DNA of 64,000 bases from Raillietiella orientalis (Eukaryota). A program made the position numbers and the translations under genes. The notes beneath the pieces are model-generated. The model made no database searches. It saw nothing but the letters and a program-made list of their open reading frames with translations, and had not been told where the DNA came from. This document shows, one piece after another, positions 5,778 to 9,240 of the stretch (its first letter is position 1; every line of letters starts with the position of its first letter). The stretch is taken from assembly GCA_036172245.1 (NCBI GenBank), contig JAYWIR010000031.1, positions 1,736,001 through 1,800,000 of the forward strand, read 5' to 3'.

Positions 5778-5901
5778 GACCCGCGTTGGCGGCCGTGTGG
5801 CTGCGGCCTCTGCTCCAAACGTTGCGGGTTCGAATCCCCACGAGGAGGGTCCCCCCAGCAGGATGACGCTGGTTGGCTTATTCGTGCGCTGTGGCACTGG
5901 T
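5778..5901 (+). mobile_element. tRNA-derived SINE-like head, copy 1
   Basis: A-box-like TTGGCGGCCGTGTGG and B-box GGTTCGAATCC (5827-5837). Similar to 8412-8556 and 37991-38161. No complete cloverleaf. Confidence 0.65.
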
Positions 5902-7600
5902 TGACACCCGGTCATGCCGGGGCGTTTATTTATAAACAAGGAACACGCTTGTTTGTGGCAGGACGTTTGACCACTGCTACGCTACTCATAACTACGAGAA
6001 GGAACCTGCCGGGAAGGAAACTGGCACGCAGACCAGCGGGGTTAGCCAGGGGGAAAAGGAGACAAAAAGAAAAAAATAAAACAAAAAGCATACAGTAAAA
6101 AAAATAGGAGGGGGGCTTCGGGAAGGAATCACTGCGTACTGGAGAGCGTCCTCTGCATCCTTGTAAGGATGCTGGCAAGTTCCTGTTTCAGACTCCCAAG
6201 ACTTTCAATACTTCTTCCGAGTGCACCAGAGCTGTGGAAAGGCGGAAATCTGTGTCACCCGCTCTTGAAAGGGCAGCTCCAATGGAATTCTTGAGAGGCA
6301 GCCTCTTCGTGGACTTCGTGTCACCTTCTCTGCAGGCCGAACGATCAAAAAGACGTAGAGAGGGTTATCCCGGCTCTGTTTCGTTTTTACTGTCTCCTCC
6401 TTCCGCCCCGAATCCTGCTCGAGTGTTCTCCCTGCAAGAAACGCTCATCTCAGAGGAGGCAGGAGGATTCCGGAATGTGATGCGTTCGACTGAGAAATCA
6501 CTTCTGTCCGAGTTCCTCCGGTTACAGTTGACCATCCCGCTGAGCGTAGTCTGGATTTTCAGATCAGTCTGCTTGACTGGATCTCCTGGTGAGCCCGGGA
6601 GCTTCCTGCTTTCGCTGCACACGGGACTTTTGCGCTCATTGAGCAAGGAAGAACGGGGACAACACAGAAGCAGATTTGTTCCCTGTTTTGAATCCGATGA
6701 CGTGGAAGAGCGCGACACTCTCAAGGAAAGATTTTGGCCCGTCTTCCAACCGACCAAAAAATGGTCCAAAGTATCCAAGGGAATCTCGATTTTCAGATGG
6801 CCATGCACGAAGCTCTGATGGTATTCGTCGTCAACACAATGTACCGTTTCCTCCTCGCTGAACACTAATGTTGGAGACGCAATTTCGTTCTCAGAACACG
6901 ACGTGCTGAATCCAATTTCAATCAGCTGTAAAGACCGATTTGTCTCCAGTTCCTTTCTCGATCATATTTCTGTGTTCTTGCCACGTTTGATGTTTTACTG
7001 TTGAAGAGGAAAATTCCATCTCTGCGAATCCCTTGCTGAACAGAGCGCACGGAACAAACAAACTTCCCATCTTGAAAGCCAATTCCGATGTATTATTAGA
7101 TGCATTCCATGAGATGATGCATTGGAATGATGATGTATAAGAATGGTAGATGGACCAAGGCAAGGAAGGCCTGAAGATCTCGAATCCGAAGAAACTGCCA
7201 ATCCAGAGTCGGAGGCTTTTGAGACCCCTCCAGAATCTTGACACGAGCAGCTGCTGCACTCAAAGTTCCGTGTTCTGGAAGGTTCGCCCCCACCTTGCCA
7301 TTCTGGAAATTCCGCAACGCTGTTTGATGCAACATGGAACGCCGAGCTGCTTGAAACCACATGTTCCTCTCCGATGAGTTCTTGAAAGCAAGAAGTTCCG
7401 AAAAACGTCATCTCGGGAAGCGAGTTTCCATACCTTTGGAGCTTTTCGCAAACTTCGTCTATTCCTCGTGGTTCCCTGACGGGAACAGGGGAAGCCCGCC
7501 AAGCACGCATGAATTAAACTCGAGGAACAACACCAGCGGGGACGATCCACTCAGTTAGGGCAGCTTTTTGTCTCGAAAGAAGTGTCGTTTCCGAAAATTC
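5902..7600 (-). mobile_element. DIRS-type tyrosine-recombinase retrotransposon, decayed YR ORF plus 3' end
   Basis: Minus-strand fragments occur in YR order: 'SLIHACLA/RAWRAS', 'DVFRNFLL', 'LLVSRFWRGLKSLR', 'LAFKMGSLFVPC', 'KSPVCSE', then 'AALSRAGDTDF...HSSGALGRSIESLGSLKQELASILTRMQRTLSST'. These match the DIRS YR pattern LV.RF.KG...LRP / CPV / HS.R..A.S...IL...W.S.STF. AATAAA on the element strand at 5925-5930. Confidence 0.65.
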
Positions 7601-8411
7601 AGTCATTATTCAGTCATCTAGGAATGCAATTAGCTGGGTCACGCCCCTCGGTTGAGTTGCGTGCTCCTTTCGCCTCCTGAAAGTTCCCAGCTTTCTGCAA
7701 GATACCATCGTCCCAGGTTCATGATTTCTCCCCGCCGAATACTGGGAAAGTTCTCGATAGGGAAGTTGAAGACTTATCCAGAGAAGTCTCCAACTTCCCT
7801 ATCCAGAGCTTTAATTTTTAATGACGTGCAGACATCATGAAAGTGTATTCCTTGGTTTCGATGTTTCCGTAGGATTCTATAAACCGCAACTGACACAAGA
7901 TAAATATCTAAAACGTAGAAGGAAGCCCAAACGAAAAAAGATCAACGTTCATTGTTTATTTGATTTTTTTCTTGGAGGTCATTATCTTTGGCTGCTGCGT
8001 GTCTCCAACAAGAGATGTCTTTCAGATATGACGACATCATTGTTCAAATTATCTGGACCGAATTCTGTGTGTGGCATTGAACTGGTAAGAAAAAATGAAA
8101 AGGTCTACTGTACTGCTGACCTAACCTCTGCGCTGGCTGCAGGATTTTTTGCTTCACAGCACGACCAATGATTCGATTTCTGTGTGCCGCATCACAAGCA
8201 GAAGCAGGGCCGTCGAAGTGAAACCCTCCAGCTGGGCCCGCTTGCCCACTTCCGAGTTTGAAGAGAGGCGGGCAATGGCTGCCATTCGGACTGAGGTTAT
8301 CGGAACAAAAAAACAAAAAAAACAAATGAGTGTGGTTTCGCTGTGGGTTTCACATCCATCCTCCGCGGCTTCCGTGGGAATTCTCCACAATTCGGTGCAA
8401 TCTGTTGGTGC

Positions 8412-8556
8412 GGGCGTTAGCGGCCGCGTGGATGCGGTCTCCGCGAACGGCACCATTGCGTCGCGGGTTCGAATCCCCACGTGGAGGATCGACCCCGAGA
8501 AATGCGTGCGCCGTGGGCTTCGAGTTTTTTTCTCAGGACGACGCTGCTGCACTGGT
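8412..8556 (+). mobile_element. tRNA-derived SINE-like head, copy 2
   Basis: A-box-like TTAGCGGCCGCGTGG and B-box GGTTCGAATCC (8466-8476). CGACCCCGAGAAAT..GTGCGCCGTGGGCTTCG aligns with copy 3. Confidence 0.65.
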
Positions 8557-9143
8557 TGACATGCGGTCAAGCCGGGGCATTTATTTATAAAATAAACATT
8601 CATGCCTGTGGCAGGACGTTTGATCCTGACACGTTACTTATGAATACGAGAAGTAACCTGCCGGGAACTGGCACGCAGTCAGGCATGATATAGTCAAAAT
8701 ATAAAATACAATATCCCAAAATTGAGGGGTTCGGGAAGGAATCACTATGTGCTGGAGGGCGTCTTTGGTATCCTCGTGAGGATGTCGGCAAGCTCCTGTT
8801 TTATGTTTCCCAGATTGGGCCATCTTGACGCTGTGCTCATGAAGAGGACAGCAAAATAAATGATGTCCTTGTCGTTCTGTCCTCCTCTGGCGCTGTTGCA
8901 TGCAGCCACGGTTTCTCCGCGCGGGCAGCAGAGTGATGCTGGGGATGCGGCTGGCGTGAGAGCATCGCGCAGAAAGAAGCGCTTTAAGACATCTCTGGGG
9001 TTGCCACCGGGGGTTCCAAGGGTCGCAGCAAAGCGTCCCCAAAAGAGGTCGGAGGGCAATACAGCCCGCTAGGGGGTGCGGATTCCCGCTCCCCGCACCT
9101 TACACAGTTTGCAGCTACACACATCCGTGTCCAATGATCCACG
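8557..9143 (-). mobile_element. Short, internally deleted YR-element derivative (3' end homologous to 5902-6200)
   Basis: Shares TTTATTTATAAA, TGTGGCAGGACGTTTGA, ACCTGCCGGGAA and TTCGGGAAGGAATCACT with copy 1. Encodes 'LGNIKQELADILTRIPKTPSST'. Bounded by GCACTGGT on both sides (8549-8556 and 9144-9151). Confidence 0.6.
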
Positions 9144-9240
9144 GCACTGGTGGAAACCGGAAACGGGATGCTCCTGTTGACTGACCAGTTTTGGAAATTG
9201 ATCATCCGGGGTCTTTCCAGGAATCAAGGAGTCCTCCAGA
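9144..9240 (+). mobile_element. Downstream half of the SINE-like element (continuation of copy 2)
   Basis: CTGGTGGAAACC...TTGGAA.TGA.C.TCC.GGGTC.TTCCAGGAATCAAGGAG matches 38157-38227. The 17 nt at 9215-9231 are identical to 38211-38227. Confidence 0.6.

Follow-up and report, generated by a model that had tools for sequence, protein, structure and literature searches.

Does one mobile element use a fixed landing site inside another? This question is raised by a 64,000-nt stretch of the Raillietiella orientalis genome (contig JAYWIR010000031.1, positions 1,736,001 to 1,800,000; the whole stretch is called the window here), which carries three copies of a repeat resembling a short interspersed nuclear element (SINE). 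Two of these copies break off at the same octamer, GCACTGGT, and pass into an oppositely oriented sequence, here called E. The original prediction, made from the sequence of the window, took E for the 3′ end of a tyrosine recombinase (YR) retroelement that inserts site-specifically into the SINE. Our analysis identifies a real nested repeat with a reproducible junction, and establishes neither the YR identity of E nor site specificity. The reading that we favour, with a probability of about 0.4, is that E is a non-autonomous element of the retroposon type, inserted by target-primed reverse transcription (TPRT) at a preferred site in the SINE-like repeat.

The interrupted unit is, as far as the data support it, a SINE-like repeat with a B box of RNA polymerase III (Pol III). 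Its uninterrupted form, copy 3, is about 275 bp long; a body lies between the head, which contains the B-box/T-arm motif of Pol III, and a tail finishing near GAAAATG. The three heads (that of copy 3 taken to 38161) are related to one another, with BLASTN identities of 74–75% over 66–110 nt and E-values of 2e-10 to 4e-7, and all three begin at one shared point, within a few nucleotides. Relative to copy 3, the head of copy 1 has a deletion of ~40 nt, and the head of copy 2 is without ~21 nt that copies 1 and 3 have. The tail of copy 2 (9144–9264) matches 38154–38265 (BLASTN 80% over 55 nt, E-value 4e-9; local alignment score 80), and these two copies have a common tail end. The unit is a short, dispersed, multicopy repeat with common ends (the 5′ start in 3 copies, the tail end in 2). 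Just downstream of the copy 2 tail, at 9404–9507, the SINE tail profile has two further matches, both weak and partial (E-values 0.004 and 0.009), which may be short tail-like reiterations.

The exact B box GGTTCGAATCC is present in all three heads and at no other position of the window. With up to one mismatch, 6 B-box matches were found in the window against 1.5 expected, a number reached by 0 of 100 shuffles, so that the internal Pol III promoter box typical of tRNA-derived SINEs is present. In the heads it sits inside a T-arm-like hairpin of 17 nt, as seen with Rfam. A tRNA-like cloverleaf or A box was not found in the head: ARAGORN at default settings gave 0 tRNAs, Rfam gave no tRNA match even at E ≤ 10, and relaxed ARAGORN stayed at background (37 calls in the window, 28–45 in five shuffles). 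The repeat had been predicted to be tRNA-headed, which holds for the B box and T arm of all three heads and not for a tRNA that ARAGORN or Rfam would recognise. Among tRNA-derived SINEs, Ruka of ixodid ticks is described in an excerpt of PMC3160391 as a tRNA-Ser-like SINE of ~195 bp. The present repeat resembles such elements, by description and not by sequence comparison, in being short and dispersed with an internal B box near the 5′ end, and differs from them in being ~275 bp long and in resembling a tRNA in the T arm only.

Immediately behind GCACTGGT, both copy 1 and copy 2 pass into the shared sequence E, which is unrelated to the SINE. The two copies of E are related to each other (5902–6201 against 8557–8814; BLASTN 79% over the first 130 nt, E-value 5e-26, and 69% over 287 nt). 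E lies in the body of the repeat between GCACTGGT and GGAAACC; in two of the three copies its insertion point is identical to the nucleotide and its orientation is shared. In copy 2 the insert is bracketed by GCACTGGT as an 8-bp direct repeat of the target, which can be read as a target-site duplication, while in copy 3 the site GCGCTGGT-GGAAACC is unoccupied and the head runs straight into the tail. The consensus GCRCTGGT has only four matches in the 64-kb window, namely the three occurrences of GCACTGGT and the one of GCGCTGGT. This count is not above chance (2.7 expected; 25 of 100 shuffles reach 4), and it is therefore the placement that matters. The original prediction had described the same architecture: a switch right after GCACTGGT in copies 1 and 2, AATAAA at 23 nt from both junctions, an insert of ~590 bp (measured here as 587 bp) closed by a second GCACTGGT in copy 2, a match to copy 3 in the sequence that follows, and an uninterrupted copy 3. 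Each of these points stood up to direct reading or alignment. The features are collected in Table 1.

Table 1. Coordinates of the SINE-like repeat, of the insert E and of the DNA between the two filled copies
Feature	Position in window	Strand	Remarks
SINE-like head, copy 1	5775–5901	+	B box GGTTCGAATCC at 5827–5837; ends in GCACTGGT at 5894–5901
E, copy 1 (3′-terminal ~300 bp only)	5902–6201	−	BLASTN; nhmmer 5902–6203; tblastn with P0002 6200–6138
DNA between filled copies, part of neither repeat	6202–8403		No other window copy, no protein homologue
SINE-like head, copy 2	8404–8556	+	B box at 8466–8476; ends in GCACTGGT at 8549–8556
E, copy 2 (587-bp insert)	8557–9143	−	Opposite orientation to SINE; GCACTGGT on both sides
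Second GCACTGGT (9144–9151), then SINE-like tail, copy 2	9144–9265	+	
SINE-like copy 3, uninterrupted	37986–38265	+	B box at 38046–38056; unoccupied site GCGCTGGT-GGAAACC at 38154–38168

The sense strand of E, a repeat of at least 587 bp, is the minus strand of the window. On this strand both copies have a common arrangement, in which the end of a possible reading frame (...KQELA-ILTR...SST) is followed by a stop, an A-rich trailer of ~230 nt, AATAAA and an end in ...GTCA. The AATAAA, which appears as TTTATT on the plus strand, starts 23 nt past both junctions (5925–5930 and 8580–8585). Copy 1 retains the last ~23 codons of the frame, the stop at ~6131–6133 and the ~230-nt trailer, with ...GTCA ending at 5902. 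An end in ...CA at 23 nt after AATAAA looks like the 3′ end of an RNA of the polymerase II type. No conserved RNA hairpin was found at the 3′ end of E (z-scores −0.09 and −1.37), and Rfam detected neither a hammerhead nor any other family in E. In copy 2 the frame extends from stop to stop over 8745–9068, giving 107 aa. Over the last 29 codons of E, the 20 mismatches between the copies fall 4/5/11 by codon position, which is suggestive and not significant, and the coding status of the frame is not established.

Several features of E are in keeping with TPRT: an RNA-type 3′ end, an exact 3′ junction, an 8-bp duplication and a copy that has only the 3′ part. In this process, an enzyme with a strong preference for the SINE site would nick the plus strand after GCACTGGT, and the freed 3′ end at GCACTGGT would prime cDNA synthesis on the 3′ end of the E RNA, which would produce the precise junction between the E 3′ end and the head that both copies show. 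The 8-bp duplication of copy 2 would come from a second nick at a distance of 8 nt. The 5′ side would be variable, and copy 1, with its ~300 bp of E and no tail, could result from 5′ truncation and target deletion in one event. The best-conserved stretch of the filled copies is the 50 nt spanning the head/E junction (88% identity, against 70–76% overall), as expected if recognition involves both the E 3′ end and the target site. Insertion point and orientation agree to the nucleotide in both of the filled copies, and the two share the same E 3′ end with different lengths of E behind it (n = 2; a later deletion of copy 1 is equally possible). Such a process would entail RNA-mediated insertion, a site preference, two independent insertions and an autonomous partner, all of which we infer.

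Target-specific integration into multicopy sequences is a habit of several clades of non-LTR (lacking long terminal repeats) retrotransposons, of the R1, R2 and Tx1 types, according to an excerpt of PMC4640811. Like the products of these elements, the filled copies show one insertion position and one orientation in separate units of a multicopy target, a precise 3′ junction, one 5′-truncated copy and a short target duplication. They differ in that no reverse transcriptase (RT) or endonuclease open reading frame (ORF) was found here in the window or in the protein libraries, in that no 3′ tail repeat is present and the two insertions may not be independent, and in that the target would be a SINE rather than an RNA gene, a microsatellite or a DNA transposon. 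In Xenopus, Tx1L inserts into the Tx1D transposon. If the fixed position of E reflects true target choice, the SINE would join the multicopy, harmless landing sites of site-specific mobile elements, with GCACTGGT-GGAAACC as a compact recognition sequence.

Several results weigh against insertion by TPRT. Although E has an AATAAA, its 3′ end carries neither poly(A) nor a tail of simple repeats. Pfam was searched with 441 stop-to-stop ORF translations, comprising all those of at least 70 aa in the window and all those of at least 40 aa in 5900–9300; no RT (RVT) or endonuclease family was found, and the window contains no ORF for either enzyme. When the E frame was scored by exhaustive HMMER against 1.84 billion representative proteins, no long protein with the E frame as its C-terminus was found among them, and there is therefore no autonomous partner in evidence. 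The filled copies seen number only two, 2.6 kb apart, and the missing tail of copy 1 needs the extra assumption of a target deletion. Around the three SINE copies, the best flank matches are no better than those of shuffles as target-site duplications (p = 0.11, 0.96 and 0.71), a weak point given that the copies are old.

The degrees of identity between the copies also tell against TPRT, and bear on a second explanation that is nearly as likely: E was inserted once, with an 8-bp target duplication, and the composite so formed was multiplied, as a SINE subfamily or by some other kind of copying. The shared junction would in that case be inherited and uninformative on target choice, and a later deletion would have removed the tail and the remainder of E from copy 1. 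In aligned columns, heads 1 and 2 (83/113, 73%) are as alike as the two copies of E (194/257, 75%), and head 3 is a little more distant from both (87/130 and 105/154, 67–68%). The high identity across the junction is consistent with a common filled ancestor, as is the pentamer just before the core, which is CGCTG in both filled heads and GGGTG in copy 3; the filled copies also lie only 2.6 kb apart, and no other pair of repeats in the window reaches E ≤ 1e-10. However, the identity differences lie within about 1.5 standard errors, and the filled heads have no indel in common, the deletions that they show against copy 3 being different ones. Moreover, T-runs on the strand of the head (TTTT at 8797–8800) would stop Pol III in a composite of ~860 bp, and copy 1, with an intact 5′ end and no 3′ tail, is the reverse of the outcome of SINE retroposition. 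Three copies do not allow a decision on whether the two sites were filled independently; site-specific targeting of the SINE is possible and, with this number, indistinguishable from the spread of one composite. Taken over any mechanism, we give site-specific integration of E into the SINE somewhat less than an even chance. If the junction was merely inherited, the locus is an ordinary nested or composite repeat, of note for repeat annotation only.

A different kind of copying, in which a local duplication, segmental or in tandem, made copies 1 and 2 out of one filled site, would account for their same orientation at a distance of 2.6 kb and for their being the only strong repeat within the window. 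We regard it as highly improbable. The similarity between the copies begins at the SINE's own 5′ end (5783 and 8414), which is no arbitrary point, and does not extend to the flanks; because of this shared start, copies 1 and 2 are taken as separate SINE units and not as a random segmental duplication. In sequence, moreover, each is as distant from the other as from copy 3, and E of copy 2 differs from that of copy 1 in continuing for ~340 bp more, as it does in other genomic copies (see the joints in run X1 below).

Copy 1 was predicted to run into the 3′ end of a YR element, and a long element is not what the sequence shows. Homology to E ends at ~6201, and no SINE tail was found behind it (local alignment scores of 19 and 16, against a shuffle mean of ~19). 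The next 2.2 kb are without a second copy in the window, have no homologue among proteins and encode neither a recombinase nor an RT domain; a nearly open frame at 6200–7513 (minus strand; 3 stops) has no homologue among 7283 candidates and no Pfam family. Copy 1 is therefore a head with the last ~300 bp of E, followed by unrelated DNA. Pol III termination at a T-run inside E was considered as the cause of the truncation and rejected, as the homology runs ~15 nt beyond the T-run. The DNA between the filled copies contains a near-perfect hairpin at 7747–7812, with 32-nt arms of 88% complementarity and a 2-nt loop, whose Rfam matches are miRNA-precursor-like and below threshold (best mir-3156, 29.5 bits against a gathering score of 76). 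A 55-aa ORF at 7777–7941 (minus strand) has a sub-threshold match (E-value 0.008; 16 bits against a cut-off of 26.6; profile positions 274–326 of 370) to 7tm_7, an arthropod chemosensory receptor family, and may be an exon or a pseudogene of a gustatory receptor gene.

Further copies of E exist outside the window. A public run, X1, with contigs of ~150 nt, contains 6% of the words sampled and may itself be the source of the window. At 80% likeness, 82 of its contigs matched the window (4 at ≥99%, 6 at 95–99%, 17 at 90–95% and 55 below 90%). With 72 of the 82 less than 95% alike, the data set therefore holds other, diverged copies of E, and these cover the whole 587 bp. Further detail comes from the pieces listed, 8 of 96, and from 6 of 103 loose ends. 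Among these pieces, two (records 1 and 5) cross GCACTGGT into E at 84–85% likeness. The joints from 6184 to 8799 and from 6188 to 8821 indicate that other copies go on as copy 2 does at the point where copy 1 stops. In another contig the head (as far as 5875) is followed, after 23 intervening letters, by the sequence from 9142 onward, which makes it a further uninterrupted head-to-tail copy. Large parts of 6304–8447 are uncovered in X1, which is no evidence for single-copy status; the pieces listed at 6606–6756 and 6848–6998 are identical to the window. Metagenome contigs gave 0 matches to the DNA pattern and 162 to the protein pattern, none of which was confirmed. The loci found in prokaryote-genome contigs (2) and viral contigs (4) all match only the pattern's own 17–25 nt and are attributed to chance, and 13–18-nt strings of the repeats had no occurrence in the literature text.

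The pattern of filled and empty copies could also be read in the reverse direction, with the short 'empty' repeat as the derived form. It would then be an internally deleted, non-autonomous form of a longer element that has the head and tail as its ends, the uninterrupted form having arisen by loss of E between the two copies of GCACTGGT. Formally, the pattern does equal a deletion between direct repeats of 8 bp (partly 16 bp), and a precedent exists in VIPER and SIRE of Trypanosoma cruzi, a tyrosine-recombinase retroelement and its short derivative; in the excerpt of PMC6681497, the short element corresponds to the terminal repeats A2 and B2, and its halves also occur apart, so that long and short forms look 'filled' and 'empty'. 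VIPER differs in its split direct repeats and in encoding Gag-like, YR and RT/RH proteins. Neither such proteins nor such repeats were found here: no arrangement A1...B1A2B2 exists, and no tail-like sequence lies before head 2 or after copy 1. The inner part in the window is antisense to the short repeat and has RNA 3′-end signals of its own that end exactly at the junction. A Pol III B box lies in the head, a length of ~275 bp is typical of a free-standing SINE, and the window looks arthropod-like, whereas the host of VIPER is a kinetoplastid. We consider this deletion unlikely.

As the original prediction is spelled out here, E would belong to the DIRS order of YR retroelements, as the 3′ end or a short derivative of such an element, the circular form of which would recombine at the core GCACTGGT in the SINE. 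The 8 bp that the target and the two insert ends have in common can be read as a recombination core as well as an 8-bp duplication; in copy 1, similarity extends past the core, with 14/16 positions shared between 5893–5908 and 9143–9158; and an autonomous partner could lie elsewhere in the genome. The domain evidence points the other way. The 441 translations contained no Phage_integrase or RNase H family, and Pfam found no integrase family in 61 ORFs of 5647–9540; the only above-threshold matches in the ORF set were two Ion_trans_2 exons (51852–52079 and 52363–52938). In the HMMER search, the E frame matched one 87-aa ORF (P0002) at 52% identity, evidently another copy of the E repeat, which stands alone as the 1 member on one 2,870-nt contig. 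Two long proteins that also matched are both Ig-domain repeat proteins, and these matches are probably due to chance. A profile search of the PDB with the E frame and P0002 gave 0 chains at E ≤ 10, and Pfam at E ≤ 10 gave nothing for either sequence singly except a chance-level match of the window frame to Ornatin (E-value 0.11, 12.8 bits against a 25-bit cut-off). A word-based protein search with the E frame returned nothing, and its Atlas look-up (recognition 1040, best score 0.76) gave no lead. The E-frame alignment has an 'RW' motif, and no tyrosine follows it.

The structure of the insert is equally unlike that of a DIRS-type element. DIRS1-like elements have three ORFs (GAG, YR and RT/RH/MT), inverted terminal repeats and an internal complementary region, and in the excerpt of PMC3266345 their integration is modelled with a 3-bp junction and no target duplication, against the 8 bp found here. 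None of these ORFs was found; no inverted terminal repeats or internal complementary region were found in E, and 0 of the 14 inverted pairs in 5700–9300 join the insert ends; and the truncation of copy 1 is unlike a product of conservative recombination. The likeness lies only in the formal idea that a short sequence common to element and target could mediate integration. A DIRS-order origin of E therefore seems very remote, and as slight a chance is given to E being a short derivative of a family that integrates solely at an 8–16-bp SINE sequence (core GCACTGGT) with the tyrosine recombinase of an unseen autonomous partner. Were such a reading true, one mobile element would be a 'safe harbour' of another. 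As far as could be tested, no tyrosine recombinase appears to be involved, and whichever reading holds, this part of the prediction should not be carried forward on present evidence.

The window is eukaryotic. The nearest Atlas clusters of its potassium-channel exon are mostly arthropod, and the weak 7tm_7 match points the same way, which suggests that the DNA is arthropod-like. Right after copy 3, 38001–44000 forms a GC-rich island (55–63% GC, against ~45–50% elsewhere) with long ORFs on both strands, of up to 333 aa and without a Pfam family. The two ORFs with Ion_trans_2 matches lie on the plus strand, each with one pore domain (E-values 1.9e-11 and 1.1e-13), and look like exons of a gene for a two-pore-domain potassium channel. 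Just upstream of this gene, a 576-nt fragment of eukaryotic large-subunit rRNA (51006–51581, minus strand; 329 bits, model positions 665–1455 of 3401) stands alone in a non-rDNA context and is probably an rDNA-derived pseudogene fragment.

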